From: a virus
Lineage: Duplodnaviria > Heunggongvirae > Uroviricota > Caudoviricetes
Reading direction: 5' to 3' (one strand)
IMG/VR virus record: IMGVR_UViG_648028025_000017
DNA length: 57,405 nucleotides
Made by a program: the position numbers and the translations under genes
Shown here: in pieces, positions 1 to 48,919 of the stretch
Layout: every line of letters starts with the position of its first letter
How positions within the stretch are numbered: the first letter of the stretch is position 1
Notes under the pieces: model-generated
What the model was told of the DNA's origin: nothing
The model's input: only the letters and a program-made list of their open reading frames with translations
Database searches by the model: none

Positions 1-1158
1 ATGCTCACCGTTAAGCAGATTGAAGCAGCAAAGCCGAAAGAAAAACCATACCGCCTTCTCGATGGTAATGGCCTGTACCTTTATGTTCCTGTATCCGGGA
101 AAAAGGTATGGCAGCTTCGCTACAAGATTGACGGTAAGGAGAAAATCCTGACCGTCGGAAAATATCCGCTAATGACTTTGCAGGAGGCAAGGGATAAGGC
201 ATGGACTGCGAGGAAAGACATCTCGGTTGGCATCGATCCGGTAAAGGCGAAAAAGGCTTCGTCTAACAACAATTCCTTTAGTGCGATTTACAAGGAATGG
301 TACGAGCACAAGAAGCAAGTATGGTCAGTAGGGTATGCGACTGAACTTGCAAAAATGTTTGATGACGACATTTTGCCTATCATCGGCGGCCTTGAAATTC
401 AGGATATTGAGCCGATGCAACTGCTGGAAGTAATCCGCAGATTTGAAGATCGCGGTGCAATGGAGCGAGCAAATAAAGCCCGCAGAAGATGCGGCGAGGT
501 TTTCCGTTACGCTATTGTCACCGGCAGGGCTAAATATAACCCGGCACCTGACCTTGCTGACGCCATGAGGGGATACCGCAAGAAGAACTTCCCGTTTCTT
601 CCTGCAGACCAGATCCCGGCATTCAATAAAGCACTGGCAACATTTTCAGGAAGTATCGTATCGCTCATTGCCACCAAGGTTTTACGCTACACAGCCCTAA
701 GAACAAAAGAGCTTCGTTCCATGCAATGGAAGAACGTCGATTTTGAAAACAGGATTATCACCATTGACGCCAATGTGATGAAGGGACGCAAAATTCATGT
801 TGTCCCGATGTCGGACCAGGTGGTTGAACTTCTCACTACGTTAAGCTCCATCACCAAACCAGTATCAGAATTTGTTTTTGCCGGGCGCAACGATAAGAAG
901 AAGCCAATCTGCGAGAACGCGGTGCTACTTGTGATCAAACAAATCGGCTATGAGGGTCTGGAAAGCGGTCACGGATTCAGGCATGAATTCAGCACGATTA
1001 TGAACGAGCACGAATGGCCTGCTGACGCTATTGAAGTGCAACTGGCACATGCCAACGGCGGATCTGTGCGCGGTATTTACAACCATGCTCAGTATCTCGA
1101 TAAGCGCAGAGAAATGATGCAATGGTGGGCGGACTGGCTTGATGAAAAGGTGGAGTGA
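1..1158 (+). CDS. int: Tyrosine integrase, P4/CP4-57 type (prophage integrase; att/tRNA expected upstream, outside window)
   Basis: 385-aa ORF; N-terminal LTVKQIEAAKPKEKPYRLLDGNGLYLYV arm-binding motif typical of P4-family integrases; C-terminal GHGFRH...Y catalytic region. Confidence 0.9.
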   Translation: MLTVKQIEAAKPKEKPYRLLDGNGLYLYVPVSGKKVWQLRYKIDGKEKILTVGKYPLMTLQEARDKAWTARKDISVGIDPVKAKKASSNNNSFSAIYKEWYEHKKQVWSVGYATELAKMFDDDILPIIGGLEIQDIEPMQLLEVIRRFEDRGAMERANKARRRCGEVFRYAIVTGRAKYNPAPDLADAMRGYRKKNFPFLPADQIPAFNKALATFSGSIVSLIATKVLRYTALRTKELRSMQWKNVDFENRIITIDANVMKGRKIHVVPMSDQVVELLTTLSSITKPVSEFVFAGRNDKKKPICENAVLLVIKQIGYEGLESGHGFRHEFSTIMNEHEWPADAIEVQLAHANGGSVRGIYNHAQYLDKRREMMQWWADWLDEKVE

Positions 1159-1402: not shown

Positions 1403-2545
1403 TCAAGGTGCTTCTCTAACGGATTCAGTTTTAATTGAAGATACATCTGATTTTTTTTGCATTCTACGAGCGATGGCATGCCCTATGGATACTGATGGTT
1501 TTTCAATAAAGTTATAAGATATGATTGATATAATAAAAGTAGCGCAAATCATAGCTAGAAAAACACCAAATCCTTTACTATCCAATACCCCGTACGGTTT
1601 GAGATATAAAACAGCAAGACTGTATACAACCATATGATTAATGTAAAGTGAATAGGATATTTCACCAACATACGTTAGAATTTTATTTCTATATACATCC
1701 CTACACTTAGAAATAAGGACTATTGGGGCTATAATCATAAATGAATAAGCCCCCCATGCTACAATTCCAGGTCCATTCCTTAACCCTAGACATAAAAAAA
1801 GCAAGGCAATCGCTAATGTAATATTAAGAAATTGAACAACAGGCATTTTATTTATAAGTCTAGAAGGTAGCCTAATGTAGGCCTCTGCAATAATCATCCC
1901 CAAAATAAAGTCATATATTATTGGATTTGATACAAATACCAGATTACGAATAATTCCATCACCAGATGGCGGTTGCGCGATAGGATTTAGAAAAACATCT
2001 CCGTGAAAGTACAGTTGACCAAGAACGCAAATAATGATGAGAAGAAATGATGCGATCGCAGTTCTATATTTATGGCTGATGCATAATGAAAAAAAGAAAA
2101 CCACATAGAACCAAATTTCATACGTTAGTGTCCATGCAGGTATTATTATACTATAACCTGACCATGGCCCTATAAAATTATAGTCAATTGGTATGAGCAA
2201 GTAGCTCTTTATTATTTGTGATGATGTATATATTGCCTCATAGTTGAGGTATATAGCCAGAGTAAGGATTATAAAGTAAACAGGGTACAACCTAAAAAAA
2301 CGCTTAGCAGCAAACACCATTGGCCGGTTTTTTGCCTTATTCATTGAAGAATAAGTAATGATAAATCCACTTATAACAAAGAATATATCAACACCAACCT
2401 CACCTATACCAAAAAGAATGTCGCCCAAGTCCTTTTGGGCATACACTCCATTTAAATATACTCTAAAGTGAAACGCAATGACTAGAAGTACCGCGATCCC
2501 TCTAAGGACTTGAATAGAGTCTAACTTATTTGTTTTTCTTTCCAT
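1403..2545 (-). CDS. Acyltransferase family 3 integral membrane protein (Oac/OafA-like, probable LPS/O-antigen O-acetyltransferase)
   Basis: 380-aa polytopic ORF, very AT-rich, N-terminal LRGIAVLLV..H motif of acyltransferase-3 family; sits between integrase and tailspike as serotype-conversion modules do. Confidence 0.8.
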   Translation of the reverse strand: MERKTNKLDSIQVLRGIAVLLVIAFHFRVYLNGVYAQKDLGDILFGIGEVGVDIFFVISGFIITYSSMNKAKNRPMVFAAKRFFRLYPVYFIILTLAIYLNYEAIYTSSQIIKSYLLIPIDYNFIGPWSGYSIIIPAWTLTYEIWFYVVFFFSLCISHKYRTAIASFLLIIICVLGQLYFHGDVFLNPIAQPPSGDGIIRNLVFVSNPIIYDFILGMIIAEAYIRLPSRLINKMPVVQFLNITLAIALLFLCLGLRNGPGIVAWGAYSFMIIAPIVLISKCRDVYRNKILTYVGEISYSLYINHMVVYSLAVLYLKPYGVLDSKGFGVFLAMICATFIISIISYNFIEKPSVSIGHAIARRMQKKSDVSSIKTESVREAP

Positions 2546-2615
2546 ATCAAAATGTGTTTTACTGATTTTTTTTAAACATACCAGATCAAAGTAATCATTT
2601 CAATACATAGGTCTT

Positions 2616-4739
2616 TTAAAAGTTTCCCTCTGATAAGAAAGAATAGGTTCCTGGCCCACCTGGAATATTGCATGTCCATGCCTTTGGTTGTCCTGAAGCA
2701 GGTGCGCTATTGATAACACGCTCACCTATATCCCAGAAACCGGATGTAGGTACTGACGAAAGATAAAATGTTGTTTTTTCAACTTGCAACGCGTTTGATG
2801 GCATTCCATATGCACATAGAGAAGGTGAGTTTATGAGTACATTTCCTGAACCATAATTTCTTATACCAACATTTATAGCTGTATCAGTTTCGTATATATA
2901 CACACCACAACTAACATAGCTCCATTTCCCATTACCAGCTAAAGGTGCTGTAGAGTCTGTTTGTCCTGCACCATTAATTATAAACATAAGTTTTGACGCT
3001 GATCCCTGGTCATTGACCCACGCACCAAACCATACAAATTTCCCTTTTAGTTCTGGTGATTTGTTGAGGTCTATCGTTCGTCCCCAAACTCTATCTCCTG
3101 TCGTAACTAAGAATGAATAATTACCAGCATAGATGTTTTGAGTTTTTATCAATGTTCCTGTAGTTCCAGATGCCGCAGTCCAGAGCAACATATTTCGATC
3201 AAGATAGTTAGCAGTTAACTCTCTGTTCGCAATATCTATTAAATGCGCAGTGTCAGGGTTTTGTGTCGCCGGGTCATAACTACCAACGTATCCGATGGAG
3301 TTCACTGTGTTGTTGGCAAGATATAGCCTGTCAGTAACTTTGGACGAAAGATTATTGTGGTACATTGCTAATAAATTATTCACTTTCGATGCGTCTAATA
3401 ACTGATTATTTTCAATCGTCAGGTTTTTCGCATAGTTCGTGAAAATAAATCCGTCTTGGTTAGGTAGCGCGCTGGCGTAGCCAATCGCGGTCTGCTGATT
3501 CCCGCGAATAGATACGGTATCATTAATTTTTGAAAGGTCAGGAATTAATGTAAAATTGTTCGCGATAAGGTGGATATCCGCACGTACTGTAATAGACTCA
3601 GGTACACTATACGGGTAACCAATCTCACCGTTGCGTTCCCAATAGTTAGCATCAAGGTTAAGGCCTTTAACCCCGTAAGCCAAAAGTCCGTAGAACTTAT
3701 TTTGCTCTATATTGTTGCCATTAACTCTGACGCTCATACCGCCCTCAGCGTAAGCTGGCGTAAGTAAAACTCCACCGGCTCCGTTACCATAGATACGGCT
3801 GTTGATTATATTAATATTATTGCAGTAACCACCAACATTAATACCGTTACCGGCGTTTTGAAACAACCGGCACCCAATGATGTCAATGGAGTAACCGTTA
3901 ACTAATATTGCGTTGTTATTAGTATTAACCACGTCAATATTTTCTATTTTAATGTGGTTGGCTTCAGTAAGACTGATGCCGTTAGCTGCGTAGCCATTTC
4001 CGTCAAGACCAAAGTCCCTGAACTCGCAGAACGTAATTACCCCATCTTGTTGCGTGATTATCGGTGCCGCTGTACCCGTAGAGAAAATTCTGGACTGATA
4101 TGCGCCAGCACCTCGTATCATGGTGACAGTATTCTTAATCGTAATACCAGGGTCAACAATGAACGCCCCCTCTGGTATAACAATCTCAGTTGGCAACGTA
4201 GCATCATCAATAGCCTTCTGAAATGCAGCTTTGTTCTGAGCACCGGTGTTTCCCTCAGCAAACCCGTAGTCTGTAAGCGTCCTCAGGTCGATAGTTAGCT
4301 TTTTTGAGAGAATGGTCGATGTGCTATCGACAAACTGTGGGTTATGCATGACTAGAGAGTCGCCAAGTGAGTGATCTTCGCTCAGGAGATTGCCCTTAAA
4401 CTGATCTGGATCATACTTTAGCACATTCGGAAAATAGAACTGCTGCGCACCGTATGCATCATAAACAGCCATAGAATGGCCTTGCACAGTTACGAACTTG
4501 GCAATCTGTCCGTTATATACAGGGTAACCAGCAGCGTTAATGATGATTGGTTGCGAAACAGGAACGTGAGAACCGTCTTCGTTTTCCACATAAACCTGAA
4601 TCTGGTTTTCTGGATTTACCGGGTCAGTGTCAATTTTACCGATATAAATTTTTCCATTGGCTACGGCTTTAAAAGAGCGAGACATAGTGAAGAGTTGCGA
4701 AGGCATGCTGACCACAACATTTGCGGTGATATCTGACAT
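2616..4739 (-). CDS. Tailspike protein: P22 gp9-type N-terminal head-binding domain fused to a divergent beta-helix receptor-binding/depolymerase domain
   Basis: Start placed at [10 protein letters not shown] (ATG 4739, GGAG 8 nt upstream); first ~110 aa match recalled P22 gp9 N-terminus ([31 protein letters not shown]); remainder repetitive G/N-rich beta-helix-like. Confidence 0.9.
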
Positions 4740-4827
4740 TTCATTGCTCCAGAAGAATGATATGATGCAACCATGATGTGATTGCATACCGAAATGGTAC
4801 TATTGAGTATTTATCCAGTAGGTTACG

Positions 4828-5127
4828 ATGCCATTCCACCCAACTGGTGAGGCATCAAGGATGTACAGCAAATACGACGAGGCGCAGTTTCACTTGAGAC
4901 TTCCGCATGAACTCCACGCGAAAATTAAACAGCGCGCGAAGATGAATAACAGGTCGCTGAACTCAGAGATAATTGCAGCGATTGAAGAATCGTTGGCTAA
5001 ACAAAGCTCTGCATCCGTTTACATTGATGATGCAGAGCGTATGGCAGAACAACAATCTGATATGGTTAAGAAAATGGTTTTTGAAACGCTTAAGACCATG
5101 TATAGCAATAATAAAAAGGAAACATAG
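4828..5127 (+). CDS. mnt: Arc/Mnt-family ribbon-helix-helix repressor (alternative start at 4861)
   Basis: FHLRLPHELHAKIKQRAKMNNRSLNSEI RHH motif and C-terminal SDMVKKMVFETLK resemble P22 Mnt; position between gp16 and tailspike equals P22 immI. Confidence 0.6.
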   Translation: MPFHPTGEASRMYSKYDEAQFHLRLPHELHAKIKQRAKMNNRSLNSEIIAAIEESLAKQSSASVYIDDAERMAEQQSDMVKKMVFETLKTMYSNNKKET

Positions 5128-5197
5128 AAATCTAGTTTCCGGCTAAAATGGCATTGCCTTCATGATATCCTGTGAAAAACTAAGGAGAGTTAACCAT

Positions 5198-5683
5198 ATG
5201 AAAAAATCACTGTTAATTATCCCGCTTCTGCTGGTTGGATGCGCAAAAGTAAGTGACTATCAAGCAAGTTGCGAACAACGCTATCAAAAGCTTAGCGATA
5301 TGGCTAATTGCCTTGATGCCAGTGTGAAGAACGACTCACGCATGGCATCAGCACCAACACCTAAGCTGTATGTCCTTGCTGCAAAGATGCTCGGGAAAGG
5401 TGTCGATGAAGGCAAGATAAGTGACGCACAGGCAAGACTTGAGCTTCAGAATCTTTATGTTCAATTACAAAGCCAAGAACAAGCCCAACAAATAGCACAA
5501 AGCCAAGCATTCCAGCAGGCTTTATTGAATTATCAGGCTGTAAACACAATGCAAGCGATCGAGCAAAAAGCGCGCCAGCCTGTTATAACTCAACCTTACC
5601 CAACACGCGTTGACACATATACAAACTGCAATTCAGGATTTGGAAACACGGTAACATGCAACAGTAGCAGTAATATCAGGTAG
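5198..5683 (+). CDS. Lipoprotein of unknown function (possible superinfection-exclusion moron)
   Basis: Start at MKKSLLIIPLLLVGC with AAGGAGAG RBS; lipobox LLVGC; Q-rich mature part; no family recognised. Confidence 0.6.
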   Translation: MKKSLLIIPLLLVGCAKVSDYQASCEQRYQKLSDMANCLDASVKNDSRMASAPTPKLYVLAAKMLGKGVDEGKISDAQARLELQNLYVQLQSQEQAQQIAQSQAFQQALLNYQAVNTMQAIEQKARQPVITQPYPTRVDTYTNCNSGFGNTVTCNSSSNIR

Positions 5684-40503: not shown

Positions 40504-40678
40504 TGCACACCTCTCCTGAAATCTACCATACCCCACAAAAAGCCTTTATAATCAGCACATACCCTTACTTATGTTACTCAAATAGTCGCCTTAATTCTCC
40601 TCAGGGGAACGTAAATCAAGTCACATTTGGGGGCCTATTTAGGGGCACATCTTGGTCAATCTATTGCGAGGCCCCCAG

Positions 40679-41869
40679 ATGCCACTGACAGCTCGACAAG
40701 TTGAAACAGCCAAACCCAAAGATAAAATTTATAAGATTGCCGATGGTGGTGGGCTCTACCTTCAGGTCAATCCTAACGGCTCAAAGTACTGGCGAATGAA
40801 GTACCACTATGCGGGGAAGGAAAAGAAACTATCATTTGGCACCTATCCAACTATTACATTGGCTGAAGCTCGCAAACGTCGGGATGAAGCCAAGAAAATA
40901 CATGCCGATGGTAAAGATCCCGGTGAAGTCAAGAAAGCTGAAAATCTTGAGAAAAACCTTTCCGAAGGAAGAACTTTTGCCGCAATCGCCACCGAGTGGT
41001 ACAACGCAAAAGTTTCAGGCTGGTCTGCCAGCTACGCTGATTATGTCGACAGAGCATTCAAAAATAATGTGTTTCCCTACATTGGAAACAGACCCATTAG
41101 TGAAATCGAACCTCTTGAACTTCTCGCAGTTCTTCAGCGTATCGAAAGCCGAGGAGCCTGCGAGCTAGCTAATAAAGTTCGCCAACGATGTGGTGAAGTG
41201 TTTCGGTATGCCATTGTTACAGGTCGGGCACGATACAATCCAGCTTCTGATCTGGTTATAGCAATGAAAAGCTATAAGCGAACACATTACCCTTTCCTGC
41301 TTCCTCCTGAACTACCAGAGTTTTTATACAAACTCGAAAACTAAACCGGCAGTATTGTAACCCGTGAAGCTACAAAATTGTTGATGCTCACAGGGCTGAG
41401 AACAGTAGAATTACGTATGGGGGAATGGTGTGAGATCGATTTTACCCAAAAGATATGGGAAGTTCCTCCGACCCGGATGAAAATGAGGAAGGAGCATATC
41501 GTCCCTCTGTCAGATCAGGCAATCCAGTCTCTGCAAATCCTCAAAGAACTGACTGGAAGATACAGATACATCTTTGCCGGAAGAAATGATGTTAACAGGC
41601 CTATCAGCGATGCAAGCGTCAATATGGTTTTGAAGAAGATTGGCTATGACAAAAAAGCTACCGGGCATGGATTTCGTCATACAATGAGTACTGTTCTACA
41701 CGAGCAAGGATTCAATAGTGCATGGATTGAAATGCAACTTGCACATACGGACAAAAACAGCATTCGTGGTACATACAACCATGCTCGTTACCTTGAAGGA
41801 AGACGAGAAATGATGCAATGGTACGCTGACTACCTTGATGCTCTTCGAAAAGAGTCACCAGCTATATAA
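40679..41869 (+). pseudogene. Second P4-type tyrosine integrase interrupted by an in-frame TAA (41342-41344)
   Basis: N-part ends ...FLYKLEN*, next codon in same frame continues TGSIVTREATKLLMLTGLRTVELR...HGFRH...Y; aligns collinearly with the integrase at 1-1158. Confidence 0.8.
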
Positions 41870-44426: not shown

Positions 44427-46366
44427 GAGTCACCTCTGGTTGAGAGTTTACTCACTTAGTCCTGTGTCCACTATTGGTGGGTAAGATCAGATCAACGAAG
44501 AGAAGATCAGCATATATGCACTAGAAACCAAAATATCGAGCCAAGGCAATTGTTAACTTGCGTGGACAGATGCTCGTTATGTATTAAAATCCCATTGCTT
44601 AGTCACGAAGATAATGATCGTATGGCTTCCTTAAGGGCTGGTGAGACACGTTGATTAAGTGCTTCATTAGCCCAGTCGGATTGCACGGGTATTCTACGCA
44701 ATATCACTGTGTTTAAAGCAGCAAACAAACGATGCAGTAAATGTATAGAACCGGTCGCGATAGCTGTATCCACCCACTGGTCCGCATAGAGCCATGGGGC
44801 TGAAAATAAATCAGCCATCGCCTGAGTAGCAACTTCAATAGACGCTTTTTCTAGGCAAAGAACATCACCCTGATCGCCAAAATTATGCTCAAAGTAAGGC
44901 AATCCTTCTATATTCGTGCGAATTAGAGGAAATGGGCAGCGCCCAATGCTCAGTAAAATATAGGCGTCTATACGCTGATCATCGTCACCCACCTCTGCTG
45001 ACGGCAGTTTCGCTAGTTGCCCGAGTATCATCCAACTGGTTGATTTAGAAATGACCTTTGGGATTTGATCCTCTAAATTCACCAGAACACTCTTTGCATC
45101 ATCCCCGTGTTTAGAAATCCACGCTAATCCATCCTCAATCTTTAGATTGACTTGTTGGTTGTCTGGCATGGCTAAAGTAAACAATCCGTTTTTTATAGGT
45201 TCTTTATATGGCTCAATGCTGAGAAGGCCCTGAATAATTCCAAAGCTGAAATATCTCTCTTTAGCTGCCATACGGCGTATGGCTTGAGCACCGATCATAT
45301 CTCCAAGATAAGTGGCGTCTAGCCGTTCGCCAAGCCAAGCCCCGGCGTCTTGAGGGTCTTGTTCTGCCCGTAAAACCAGTTCATCACAAACAGCATCCGA
45401 CAGTTCCAGAAGGTAAGCTGCGGGAACTGTCGGCACCACAACATCTTCCCATCCTGAAAGGCGAAAAATACGAACTGCCCCCATATGTTTTAACTCATTC
45501 ACTACACCACGAGCTTCGTCAGAAAGTGCGTCATACCGCACGACAAATCCATTCGCTTTAGCAAACATTAATTCTACTGAGTGGGAGTTTGTGTCAGCTA
45601 GTGCGCAGCGTGCAAGAACCCGATAATAACGAAGAAGATCATACTGACTCTCATAGCTCTTTTGCGCAGCATCTATAAGTTCCATACCGGGTGATGGAGG
45701 AAGATAGGCGATAAGATCCGTTTTCTGGTATTGATGATTGCGCACAATGTCATCATAAATAGTGCGAAGAACCCAAGGCGAGCGGTAGTCATCGGCGTAT
45801 TCTGCTCCCTGTTGAAAAACTATCCGCTGGTCCGAGAGAATCTGTTGCGCCAGCTTAAATTCATCTAGGGACATAGGCGATGTTTTAAATACCTTCGACC
45901 GGCTACCAATTGCAGACGGAGTTCGTCCGTTTGGATTTTTCAGTAACGCGTTGGCATGATAGGTCGTCAGAACAACCACCAGCCTGTTGCCAAAACGTAT
46001 ACCCGCAAGTTCCTCAAGATCAGTAGCCATTTGGGAGCCTGGTTCAACGTCGTCGATAGCAAGCATAAGCGATGGACCTTCAGTGCAGTTAGACATTCGT
46101 CTTAACCAGTTACGTGCATCATTTGAGGTTAAATTCCATTCAAATTCAGCTGCAAAAAGATTGGCCAGAGCCTGAAATAGTCCTGGTCCGGAACCTCGTA
46201 ACATCAGGACAGCCAAAAGATCGCTACTTTCCGTTTTTAGCGAAATTTCACGGAGGCAACTGCTTTTTCCGCTTTGTGCATCACCCTCAATGATAGTGAA
46301 AGCTGTACCCATTGAACCGCCCCGGGAATCCTGGAGACCAAACTCCCTGAGAAAGAGGTAAACAGG

Positions 46367-46693
46367 ATGACTAAAAATACACGTTTTTCCCCCGAGGTCC
46401 GTCAACGGGCAGTTCGTATGGTTCTGGAAAGTCAGGGCGAATATGACTCACAATGGGCGGCAATTTGTTCCATTGCCCCAAAGATTGGCTGTACACCAGA
46501 GACTCTGCGTGTGTGGGTTCGTCAGCATGAGCGGGATACCGGGAGTGGTGATGGTGGACTCACCACCGCTGAACGTCAGCGTCTGAAAGAGCTGGAACGT
46601 GAAAATCGTGAACTGCGCCGCAGTAACGATATCCTTCGCCAGGCTTCCGCTTATTTTGCGAAGGCGGAGTTCGACCGCCTCTGGAAAAAATAA
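46367..46693 (+). CDS. IS629-like transposase OrfA
   Basis: 108 aa HTH protein [26 protein letters not shown]. Confidence 0.9.
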
Positions 46694-47580
46694 TGCCGCT
46701 GCTGGATAAGCTGCGTGAGCAGTACGGGGTCGGACCGGTATGCAGTGAACTGCATATTGCCCCGTCAACGTATTACCACTGTCAGCAACAGCGACATCAT
46801 CCTGATAAACGCAGTGCCCGTGCTCAGCGCGATGACTGGCTGAAGAGAGAGATACAGCGCGTATACGATGAAAATCATCAGGTGTACGGTGTGCGTAAAG
46901 TCTGGCGCCAGTTGTTACGCGAAGGTATCAGGGTGGCCAGATGTACAGTGGCGCGCCTCATGGCGGTTATGGGACTTGCCGGTGTTCTCCGGGGTAAAAA
47001 GGTCCGTACTACCGTCAGCCGGAAAGCCGTTTCCGCAGGCGACCGCGTAAACCGTCAGTTCGTGGCAGAACGTCCTGACCAGCTGTGGGTGGCTGATTTT
47101 ACTTACGTCAGCACATGGCAGGGCTTCGTCTGTGTGGCGTTCATCATTGATGTGTTTGCCGGATGTATCGTGGGGTGGCGAGTCTCATCGTCTATGGAAA
47201 CGACATTCGTGCTGGATGCACTGGAGCAGGCGTTGTGGGCCCGTCGGCCGTCCGGCACAGTCCATCACAGTGATAAAGGTTCTCAGTATGTATCACTGGC
47301 CTATACGGAGCGACTAAAAGAAGCAAAACTGCTGGCATCAACAGGGAGTACAGGTGACTCGTATGACAACGCGATGGCGGAGAGCATCAATGGTCTTTAC
47401 AAAGCGGAGGTAATACACCGTAAGAGCTGGAAAAACCGTGCAGAAGTGGAACTGGCCACACTCACGTGGGTGGACTGGTATAACAATCGACGATTGCTGG
47501 GAAGGCTGGGTCATATCCCTCCGGCAGAAGCAGAAAAAGCTTATTATGCTTCCATCAGAAACGATGATCTGGCAGCCTGA
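46693..47580 (+). CDS. IS629-like transposase OrfB (DDE integrase core)
   Basis: 295 aa; HSDKGSQY ... DNAMAESINGLYKAE motifs. Confidence 0.9.
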   Translation: MPLLDKLREQYGVGPVCSELHIAPSTYYHCQQQRHHPDKRSARAQRDDWLKREIQRVYDENHQVYGVRKVWRQLLREGIRVARCTVARLMAVMGLAGVLRGKKVRTTVSRKAVSAGDRVNRQFVAERPDQLWVADFTYVSTWQGFVCVAFIIDVFAGCIVGWRVSSSMETTFVLDALEQALWARRPSGTVHHSDKGSQYVSLAYTERLKEAKLLASTGSTGDSYDNAMAESINGLYKAEVIHRKSWKNRAEVELATLTWVDWYNNRRLLGRLGHIPPAEAEKAYYASIRNDDLAA

Positions 47581-48919
47581 GTTCACAGATAAAACACTCT
47601 CCAGGAAAACCGGGGCGGTTCACATCACAGCAGATTCAATTACAAGAGACGTGATTTTGCGAGGAAAAAGTAGGTTGTTGGCAAATGGATGTTCTGAATG
47701 CCCAGGCTGATCAGTTATATCAATCAGCAGCCGGGCTGTTTCTTCTCGCACAGCTGGCACCCAAGCATTAGTTTCTCGCCCCATCAAGGCTTCAATAGCC
47801 CAGCGCATGTCAGCCGCCGCCAACTTTGCAGAATTGGCGAGCATCTTGTTTACCGCTGCCGAGGCATCCTGTCCACCCGACCACTGTTGTCCATTACTTG
47901 AGTCATAAACGCGCGTATCTTTACCGTTCGTAACTACAACGAGAGGCGGACGTGGTGTTAACTGGTTAGCGTAGCTTTGAGCCTGTTCATAATCATCATG
48001 GGTCAGTGTCAGGTCTTCACGTTTCAGTTCAATAACCGCAAGTGGTCTCTCCCGATGAAAGATCAAAACATCCGCTCGCCCGTATTTTTTCCAGTGTGCG
48101 GCGCTATCTATTTTGTAAGTTCCATGGCCTAGCCGAACGGTAAAATGGCGCTGTTCGATAAGATCTTCGCGAGGAATGTTAGGAAATGCTATGTTTAGTG
48201 CTGAAGTAAGCCGGCTTTCTAGCTCGGCTTCAGTTCGAACGAGTGGAGAGCCCGTTTTTGATTGCATACTTTTCATGACAAAGTATCCTCAGATATTAGT
48301 CATTGGCTAAGTTTTTATTTCACTTACTACCTTTCCAGATTAATGCGAAGACGCATAGCATTGGATTAACGGATGTGAAATGGATTATTGACAAGCAAAG
48401 TAACTTTTTCCGCATAACTATCAATTGATTAGCTGAAGAAAGGGAATATGATTTAGTTCACTCAGGTTTCTCCAGCACGATGTGCAGATGCTAAAGCCAC
48501 GATTAATTCTAAAGCAGATTAATATAACCCTGAAACAGGCAGAGCTGGAAACGCCTGTATCGGAAGTATGCCGCATGACCGCCCCCGATAACTCACACCG
48601 AATGCCAATAGGAATGTCAGCCCCTCGCTCATAGCAGACCTTCGGGCCTGGCAGCTTAGTGCCAAGAACACTCCCCAGTGGCCTATCGGCAAGTGTAAGC
48701 GTACGAATATCGCCTCCGTGCTACACAGTAGACGACTACATTTTCGACGCATGAGCAAATCGTGGCTTTAGTTGTCTAAAACCAGTGCTTCAACACTTTT
48801 TTTTCACCAAACAACGCATCGTAGAAGCACTAGTTGGATTCCACAGGCTTACGTAAACAAATAGCGCTAACGGCTAAGCTGGTCCATTAGACGCTCAATC
48901 ATCCTCGCAAGAGGTATAG

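Follow-up and report, generated by a model that had tools for sequence, protein, structure and literature searches.

Organization of the int–acyltransferase–tailspike locus

The window analysed here is the whole 57,405-nucleotide stretch of IMG/VR record IMGVR_UViG_648028025_000017, a P22-like (Lederbergvirus, Sf6-type) prophage at the tRNA gene argW of Escherichia coli O26, and our subject is the acyltransferase gene that lies near its left end between the genes for the integrase and the tailspike. The integrase gene (1-1158, plus strand) encodes a Sf6-type tyrosine integrase (IntS) with the Pfam domains Phage_integrase and Arm-DNA-bind_3 and 99% identity to Sf6 Int. The left end of the prophage adjoins tRNA-Arg argW, which falls just outside the window; in RefSeq genomes argW and yfdC lie immediately upstream. 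The acyltransferase gene (1403-2545, minus strand) specifies a protein of 380 amino acids (aa) that Pfam and phrog matches, sequence motifs and a structural model identify as an AT3-only membrane acyltransferase, a putative O-antigen O-acetyltransferase. The neighbouring tailspike gene (2616-4739, minus strand) encodes a 707-aa protein homologous to P22 gp9, for which we use the start MSDIT found in homologues; the open reading frame (ORF) could reach 4787 (723 aa). The module is bounded by a gene of the immI region for an Arc/Mnt-type repressor (4828-5127, plus strand; Pfam Arc and Repressor_Mnt). The remainder of the prophage is likewise P22-like, with gp16, gp20, gp7, needle, capsid, portal and terminase genes, a nin region, and torI/xis at the far end.

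The acyltransferase gene and its leader make up an AT-rich inserted block, or moron (1195-2615, no strand assigned), within which similarity to other phages is interrupted. Specifically, similarity to phages N7 and Sf6 stops by 1194 on the int side and restarts at 2616, which is the tailspike stop. GC content within the block is 0.32-0.36, as against 0.42-0.50 in the flanks; for the acyltransferase gene itself it is 34.4%, compared with 48.0% for int, 42.3% for the tailspike gene and 46.6% for the whole window. A preliminary description of this DNA had singled out the acyltransferase gene as far more AT-rich than its neighbours and as lying between integrase and tailspike, and both the ORFs and the GC values bear this out. 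The block therefore differs in composition from its flanks and has defined boundaries (1194/1195 and 2615/2616) relative to N7 and Sf6, as expected of a moron.

The acyltransferase is an AT3-only protein

Judged from its sequence, the 380-aa protein is a full-length, intact acyltransferase of the AT3-only type. Residues 9-344 match positions 2-325 of the 326-position Pfam profile PF01757 (Acyl_transf_3; E 9e-29), with no other domain and no fused SGNH domain, and the phrog_3333 family 'O-acetyltransferase' matches the protein at E 3e-103. NCBIfam gave no match for the acyltransferase or for the tailspike, and a sequence search of the PDB returned nothing for the acyltransferase. Mutagenesis of OafA and Oac has identified three essential motifs in AT3 proteins: R/K-X10-H in the first transmembrane helix (TMH1), FFXISG in TMH2, and RXXR after TMH2/3 (PMC7448272). 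All three are present here, as R15-X10-H26, FFVISG at residues 55-60 and RFFR at residues 82-85, and they are retained in 115-120 of 120 homologues. The AlphaFold2 model (pLDDT 88, pTM 0.88) agrees with the ten-helix transmembrane fold of the TmAT superfamily: it shows about 10 membrane helices, together with a long helix at the C-terminus. Its best PDB folds in Foldseek are HGSNAT (prob 0.95-0.99) and GWT1 (prob 0.80), at weak E-values of 0.03-0.3 and TM-scores of about 0.39; both proteins are known structural relatives of AT3 proteins.

Comparison with three diverged relatives (L007, L006 and L099) gave dN/dS values of 0.09-0.11, and by this measure the gene is under purifying selection. Members of its clade all have a GC content of 30-38%, whatever the host. 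Among sequenced phages the best match, in a Pseudomonas phage, reaches 36% identity.

The tailspike joins a P22-type anchor to an O26-type receptor-binding domain

The Head_binding domain (PF09008; E 2e-67) covers residues 1-113 of the 707-aa tailspike (scanned as 17-129 of the 723-aa ORF) and is followed by a Beta_helix match (PF13229). Pfam and the AlphaFold2 model together divide the protein into a head-binding domain at about aa 1-115 (nt 4395-4739), a linker, a beta-helix at about aa 150-520 and a C-terminal beta-sandwich at about aa 520-707. Solved tailspikes of the P22, Sf6 and HK620 types match only residues 1-115 (E 1e-45 to 1e-68 for P22 and Sf6), with Sf6 extending weakly to about residue 256. 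The model, built with 20 homologues, reaches a pLDDT above 90 for residues 150-707 and shows a right-handed beta-helix followed by a beta-sandwich. Foldseek relates this receptor-binding domain (RBD) to Sf6, CBA120, Klebsiella and Acinetobacter tailspikes or depolymerases, to alginate epimerases and lyases and to PfbA; these matches, all at or below 15% identity, make the fold class clear but leave the glycosidic bond cut by the tailspike unassigned. The mosaic structure proposed in the preliminary description, a P22 gp9-type anchor with an unrelated RBD, is thus confirmed, since the solved structures match the N-terminus and the RBD is a different beta-helix; the fold recognition that it called for on the C-terminal part returned a beta-helix of the depolymerase type.

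The tailspike half of the cassette has already been described in silico as O26-specific. The tailspike of the RM10386 prophage (NZ_CP028126.1) was assigned in silico as the Lederbergvirus representative of O26-specific receptor-binding proteins (Virol J 2023, PMC10408124), and its DNA is 100% identical to the corresponding part of the window, so that the tailspike encoded here is the same protein. The text and supplements of that study treat the tailspike only and leave the adjacent acyltransferase unmentioned. The same study lists a Uetakevirus counterpart (E2865), which corresponds to an 873-aa tailspike with a Tail_spike_N anchor found in the same complete genomes as the module. Segment 2650-4281 of the window (minus strand), which lies within the RBD, is common to this second, Uetakevirus-type prophage tailspike, with 98.0% DNA identity to locus L014 (6957-8588) over 1,632 bp. 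The similarity ends 34 nt before the tailspike stop codon and leaves out the acyltransferase; at L014 the tailspike is followed by a lone gtrA remnant and then by lysis genes. This pattern suggests a recent exchange of RBDs between co-resident prophages. A search of 50,697 phage records found this RBD in phage N7 alone (59% identity), which does not carry the acyltransferase. In one O26 strain, 7_14_47A (L002, 3467-6903), the tailspike is interrupted by an IS3-family insertion and the acyltransferase is intact.

The cassette is essentially confined to E. coli O26

The int–acyltransferase–tailspike block is present at about 100% identity in 104 of 5,426 complete E. coli genomes, and the O26 polymerase gene wzy in 108 of the 5,426. 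Wherever a serotype is stated, the carriers are named O26 or O26:H11 strains, and the block in them directly follows tRNA-Arg argW and yfdC. Among the matches listed, 57 of 60 genomes with O26 wzy also appeared in the module lists, and no carrier without O26 wzy was seen. The cassette is thus present in about 96% of complete O26 genomes and is almost entirely limited to genomes with O26 wzy. The association extends to FDN-9, a commensal chicken isolate with a genome of 4.8 Mb (5.4-5.9 Mb for most carriers), which has the module together with 'O26 family' wzx and wzy; the FDN-9 prophage is degraded yet keeps the acyltransferase gene. The 104 copies are at least 99.8% identical. A synonymous A-to-G single-nucleotide polymorphism (SNP) at 1790 in the acyltransferase gene occurs in 32 of the 104 complete O26 genomes and could be used as a marker of prophage lineage.

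The tailspike-then-AT3 arrangement recurs in related loci

Linkage of the acyltransferase clade to its neighbours was read from exact-protein look-ups of clade members; a scan of contigs with a degenerate pattern from the acyltransferase alignment had returned nearly only distant AT3 genes from unrelated phyla and was unusable for linkage statistics. In seven of nine contexts, in an arrangement that recurs across five genera and across phage backbones, the acyltransferase gene follows a tailspike gene immediately and in the same orientation. These loci are the window, L007 (from a metagenome), L009 and L010 (Morganella), L011 (Enterobacter), L099 (Budviciaceae) and L100 (Proteus penneri). A Cronobacter member of the clade adjoins gtrABC, and an Escherichia sp. 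member lies at a prophage-remnant site.

Two Morganella morganii loci (L009, 2898-6107; L010, 2967-6107) have the same RBD (99.4%) and the same acyltransferase (100%) behind two different anchors, Tail_spike_N and the P22 Head_binding domain. Because this pair sits behind two anchors, the RBD and the acyltransferase move as a cassette between podovirus types. The O26-type RBD and the acyltransferase occur together at three levels of divergence: in the window, in L007 (RBD 64%, acyltransferase 87%) and in L099 (56% for both). The coupling is not obligate: behind the same type of RBD lie gtrABC in Citrobacter and a gtrA remnant in the second O26 prophage, whereas N7 has no acyltransferase or gtr gene there, only a small hypothetical ORF on the opposite strand. 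In the Citrobacter case, an argW prophage of C. sedlakii (L016, 5001-10515), an O26-type RBD (79% identical) is followed by a gtrC-like gene and gtrB, and the sister locus L017 shows gtrA as well, a hint that an O26-like antigen, differently modified, also occurs in Citrobacter. The position after the tailspike is therefore a conversion slot that takes varied O-antigen modifiers, an architecture that is already known.

At the Proteus penneri locus, the acyltransferase gene (5001-6104 of L100; 46% identical) comes right after a tailspike gene (2712-4889) whose receptor domain is a GDSL/SGNH esterase (PF13472, E 7e-13). On these domain assignments, L100 would pair an O-acyltransferase with a tailspike that is a putative O-acetyl esterase, an odd combination of writer and eraser.

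Comparison with Sf6 Oac and gtrABC cassettes

Conversion genes beside tailspikes have been textbook knowledge since P22, Sf6 and epsilon15, and the closest parallel to the present gene is oac of Sf6. The two proteins share their Pfam family, an AT3-only architecture and the motifs R/K-X10-H, FFXISG and RXXR, and both genes occupy the slot between a 99%-identical integrase and a tailspike in a P22-like phage that integrates at argW (the order in Sf6 being attP-int-oac-tailspike). However, identity to Oac is 28% over 120 aa (E 4e-5), the lengths differ (333 aa in Oac, 380 aa here), and oac is co-directional with int whereas the gene in the window is co-directional with the tailspike. The host antigens also differ: Oac modifies the S. 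flexneri backbone, with serotype conversion and the group 6 epitope, whereas here the antigen is that of O26 and the activity is predicted only. A test for orthology to Sf6 Oac and to S. flexneri OacB-D accordingly found no close sequence relationship. The term 'Oac-like' used in the preliminary description thus holds at the level of the family only, given the low identity and the opposite orientation.

The gtrABC cassettes of P22, SfV, SfX and BTP1 and the yfdGHI remnant of CPS-53, at argW of E. coli K-12, occupy the same conversion slot beside a tailspike or att site. They differ in mechanism, which is glucosylation via undecaprenyl phosphate-linked glucose (Und-P-Glc) rather than acyl transfer, and their proteins are unrelated to the acyltransferase.

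A promoter-like element and a short ORF in the acyltransferase leader

A consensus scan of the leader identified a candidate sigma-70-like promoter at 2575-2603 (minus strand), composed of an upstream TG, the hexamer TTGAAA, a 17-nt spacer and the hexamer TATGTT. The -35 box, the spacing and the TAnGnT pattern of the -10 box are kept in L007, and also in L006, where no tailspike precedes the gene. The promoter-like element therefore appears to travel with the acyltransferase gene, as a candidate. No terminator was detected between the tailspike and acyltransferase genes or after the acyltransferase gene, and the 216 nt past the acyltransferase stop fold no better than shuffled sequences (z = -0.03).

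The leader also contains a six-codon upstream ORF, MFKKNQ* (ATG TTT AAA AAA AAT CAG TAA; 2559-2579, minus strand), which starts inside the -10-like box and runs through a tract of eight A residues (A8) described below. It is relevant only to transcripts begun upstream, for example by read-through from the tailspike gene. If this tract is shortened to A7, the ATG at 2579-2577 comes in frame with the main ORF, which gives rise to gene calls of 391 aa; a tract of A9 would make the upstream ORF overlap the main start out of frame. The upstream ATG was considered as the true start, with A8 as the OFF state, and rejected: the MERK start is conserved in homologues, and L006 has no ATG at that position.

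Proposed function of the cassette

We conclude that the int–acyltransferase–tailspike block is probably the lysogenic-conversion cassette of a P22/Sf6-like prophage specific for E. coli O26. In kind such a cassette is already known, an AT3 lysogenic-conversion gene beside a mosaic P22-type tailspike; this member is new and uncharacterised. Its reading as an O-antigen-modifying conversion gene is supported because the clade is recurrently found downstream of tailspikes and beside gtrABC, and by analogy the acyltransferase probably acetylates a sugar of the O26 surface. If it works as Sf6 Oac does, the enzyme would accept, at the cytoplasmic face, an acyl group that is most likely the acetyl of acetyl-CoA, and pass it through a pore of ten helices to the O26 repeat unit (to L-rhamnose (L-Rha), N-acetyl-L-fucosamine (L-FucNAc) or N-acetylglucosamine (GlcNAc)) on the periplasmic side during assembly. 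The modification would alter the glycan that the phage's own tailspike binds and cleaves, and the outcomes could include superinfection exclusion, less trapping of released virions and antigenic change. In the lysogen, expression would come from the sigma-70-like promoter that appears to move with the gene (2603-2575). The earlier suggestion that the acyltransferase may modify the glycan of the neighbouring tailspike is consistent with the slot, with the linkage to tailspikes and gtr genes and with the confinement to O26; that the O26 antigen itself is acetylated is inferred.

Several observations weigh against this interpretation. The published O26 repeat is quoted as GlcNAc-FucNAc-Rha, without an O-acetyl group, and a literature search found no report of O26 O-acetylation or of this gene, although the original structure paper (PMID 8839182) was not covered. 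O-acylation of the O26 antigen is a prediction by analogy. Furthermore, matches to the promoter-like consensus occur in the region at chance frequency, and no terminator was detected, so the gene may instead be expressed solely as the last gene of the late operon. Two prophages whose RBDs are 98% identical coexist in many O26 genomes; the modification may not fully exclude such phages, unless they were acquired in a favourable order. Finally, rare tract-length variants of the gene do occur.

Some of these points could also be explained if the enzyme used a different acceptor (enterobacterial common antigen, the lipopolysaccharide core, peptidoglycan or another glycan), transferred a different acyl group, or was made only at a late lytic stage, from the end of the tailspike operon. 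The range of acceptors used by AT3 proteins is wide (PMC9558356, PMC7448272), the present protein has low identity to any characterised O-antigen acetylase (the 28% to Oac) and no more than the 36% to any sequenced phage protein, and the reported O26 structure and the uninterrupted path from tailspike to acyltransferase gene fit such explanations as well. Nevertheless, the gene lies repeatedly beside O-antigen-specific tailspikes, in the slot otherwise used by gtrABC, and beside gtrABC itself, and its carriage is restricted to O26; the promoter-like element that moves with the gene also speaks against these alternatives. We therefore regard these alternatives as rather unlikely and favour modification of the O26 antigen.

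Homopolymer tracts and maintenance of the gene

The preliminary description had pointed to two A8 tracts as possible sites of slipped-strand phase variation, and both are present (each reads as T8 on the plus strand). The coding tract (1451-1458, minus strand) spans codons 363-365 (Lys-Lys; nt 1088-1095 of the coding sequence) in the C-terminal tail. The upstream tract (2566-2573, minus strand) was measured at 21-28 nt before the ATG at 2545 and lies 2 nt after the -10-like hexamer. In addition, the coding sequence holds three T7 tracts on the minus strand: one at 2294-2300 (coding nt 246-252), which encodes the Phe-Phe of the RFFR motif and where slippage truncates the enzyme, one at 2089-2095 (nt 451-457) and one at 1794-1800 (nt 746-752). 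Runs of at least 8 in the 1.2-kb gene and leader number two, as against 0.23-0.29 expected from mono- and dinucleotide shuffles (P about 0.02-0.04), and 5 of the window's 14 runs of at least 7 fall within the same stretch. This enrichment, though genuine, is modest and compositional, with T7 tracts encoding Phe-Phe and the coding A8 Lys-Lys.

Such tracts would permit phase-variable serotype conversion, in which slippage in the upstream A8, the coding A8 or both toggles the acyltransferase at high frequency and yields mixed populations. In Haemophilus influenzae, AT3 O-acetylases are known to be switched by way of repeats (oafA), and the excess of A8 tracts points in the same direction. The predicted consequences of slippage here do not. 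A slip of +1 or -1 in the coding A8 gives proteins of 371 or 382 aa that are changed only after residue 363-365 (the last 15-17 residues), past the last membrane helix (TM10) and the Pfam domain, so that all membrane helices and the domain are left intact. The upstream A8 lies outside the -35/-10 spacer and therefore cannot alter promoter spacing. Neither tract is conserved: both are interrupted, and so are not homopolymers, in the closest homologues (87% and 81% identity), and family members carry runs of at least 7 at different, non-homologous positions.

Tract lengths were surveyed in the 104 complete genomes with 81-bp probes and in draft assemblies by look-up of exact sequences. The coding A8 does not vary among the 104 complete genomes, and the upstream tract reads T8 in 103 of them and T9 in the other, strain 2003-3014. 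The probe at 2089-2095 is identical in 104 of 104, and around 1794-1800 no indel occurs and the only variation is the SNP at 1790. At 2294-2300, 102 of the 104 genomes match the probe exactly; the two that differ are strain 13081, in which a +1 slip splits the gene into ORFs of 84 and 303 aa, and one further variant. Among draft assemblies, the wild-type protein is found on at least 1000 contigs, compared with 53 contigs for the product of a coding A7 and one for that of A9, and with three and two contigs for the truncated products of T8 and T6 at 2294-2300. The upstream-A7 form, with its 391-aa gene calls, is on 21 contigs and was checked in five assemblies (L108-L112). The coding-A7 allele occurs on at least three prophage backgrounds, without linked SNPs in int or in the gene; five int SNPs that had seemed to be linked to it proved to be an alignment-end artefact.

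Both the presence of the coding-A7 allele on several prophage backgrounds and the truncation in strain 13081 can be read in favour of switching, but lengths at both A8 tracts are strongly unimodal, and some of the variants, called in assemblies whose sequencing chemistry is unknown, could reflect homopolymer errors. True null alleles amount to no more than about 0.5%, and solely the T7 tract at 2294-2300 yields them. The tracts thus are not strictly invariant in length, since rare variants exist, yet the complete genomes are close to uniform. The H. influenzae oafA-type contingency loci likewise combine an AT3-family gene with simple repeats; what differs here is that the tracts are of 7-8 nt, unconserved and unimodal in length, and that the flagged pair is placed where slippage causes neither protein loss nor a change in spacing. 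Salmonella gtr operons, for their part, phase-vary via Dam and OxyR and not via homopolymers. We therefore consider phase variation through the two A8 tracts improbable; the tracts look like by-products of an AT-rich, Phe- and Lys-rich coding sequence, ordinary slippage hot spots of low frequency rather than a dedicated switch.

The remaining explanation, a functionless passenger that decays in a defective prophage and whose conservation among O26 strains reflects recent clonal descent, would fit the near-identity of the 104 copies (which carry little information on selection), the frameshifts in some copies or the IS3 disruption of the adjacent tailspike, and the insertion sequence (IS) element (IS600 near kil in RM10386) and pseudogenes of related O26 prophage copies, but it is very unlikely given the dN/dS of about 0.1 across diverged clade members, the intact catalytic motifs, the truncation by frameshift of under about 1% of public copies and the retention of the gene even in FDN-9.

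Other features of the prophage

Between mnt and the gp16 homologue lies an ORF (5162-5683, plus strand; GC about 0.41) with the lipoprotein signal MKKSLLIIPLLLVGC, which matches only phrog_6067, a family of unknown function; it may be another moron or an exclusion lipoprotein. Elsewhere in the window, a gene for a protein with an HsdR N-terminal domain (phrog_26510; 44603-48276) is split by an IS3-family element and is intact in strain RM10386. The element comprises a transposase gene (46693-47580) and an ALIL frameshift pseudoknot (46648-46764), the latter being the sole match of an Rfam scan, which found nothing in the int–acyltransferase–tailspike region. A second integrase gene (40652-41869), just past the xis/torI end of the prophage, is in two ORFs and is annotated in RefSeq as a pseudogene with an internal stop; IS66 and IS3 copies come after it. 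This broken integrase suggests a degraded tandem element at argW.

Implications

O26 is the leading non-O157 serogroup of Shiga-toxin E. coli, and serotyping sera, diagnostic glycoconjugates and candidate vaccines are all directed at its O-antigen. The most useful outcomes of this work are the near-universal carriage in O26 of a gene with a predicted, unreported O-acyl group as its product, the recurring tailspike-then-AT3 cassette, and the tract at 2294-2300 as a site of knock-out. The recurrent arrangement offers a handle to predict which glycan a prophage acyltransferase modifies. A more far-reaching possibility is that the O-antigen of nearly all E. coli O26 bears an O-acylation, so far unreported, that is installed by a prophage AT3 gene which travels with RBDs between P22-like and epsilon15-like phages, and that slippage (in the T7 at 2294-2300, and in the upstream A8, which sets the frame of the upstream ATG) makes the modification heterogeneous within populations. 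In this full form we think it improbable; were it true, heterogeneous acylation would have consequences for serodiagnosis, for glycoconjugate vaccines from prophage-free hosts and for phage susceptibility. If the enzyme does acylate the O26 repeat, neither the published structure nor recombinant O26 glycans produced in prophage-free hosts would match the native antigen.

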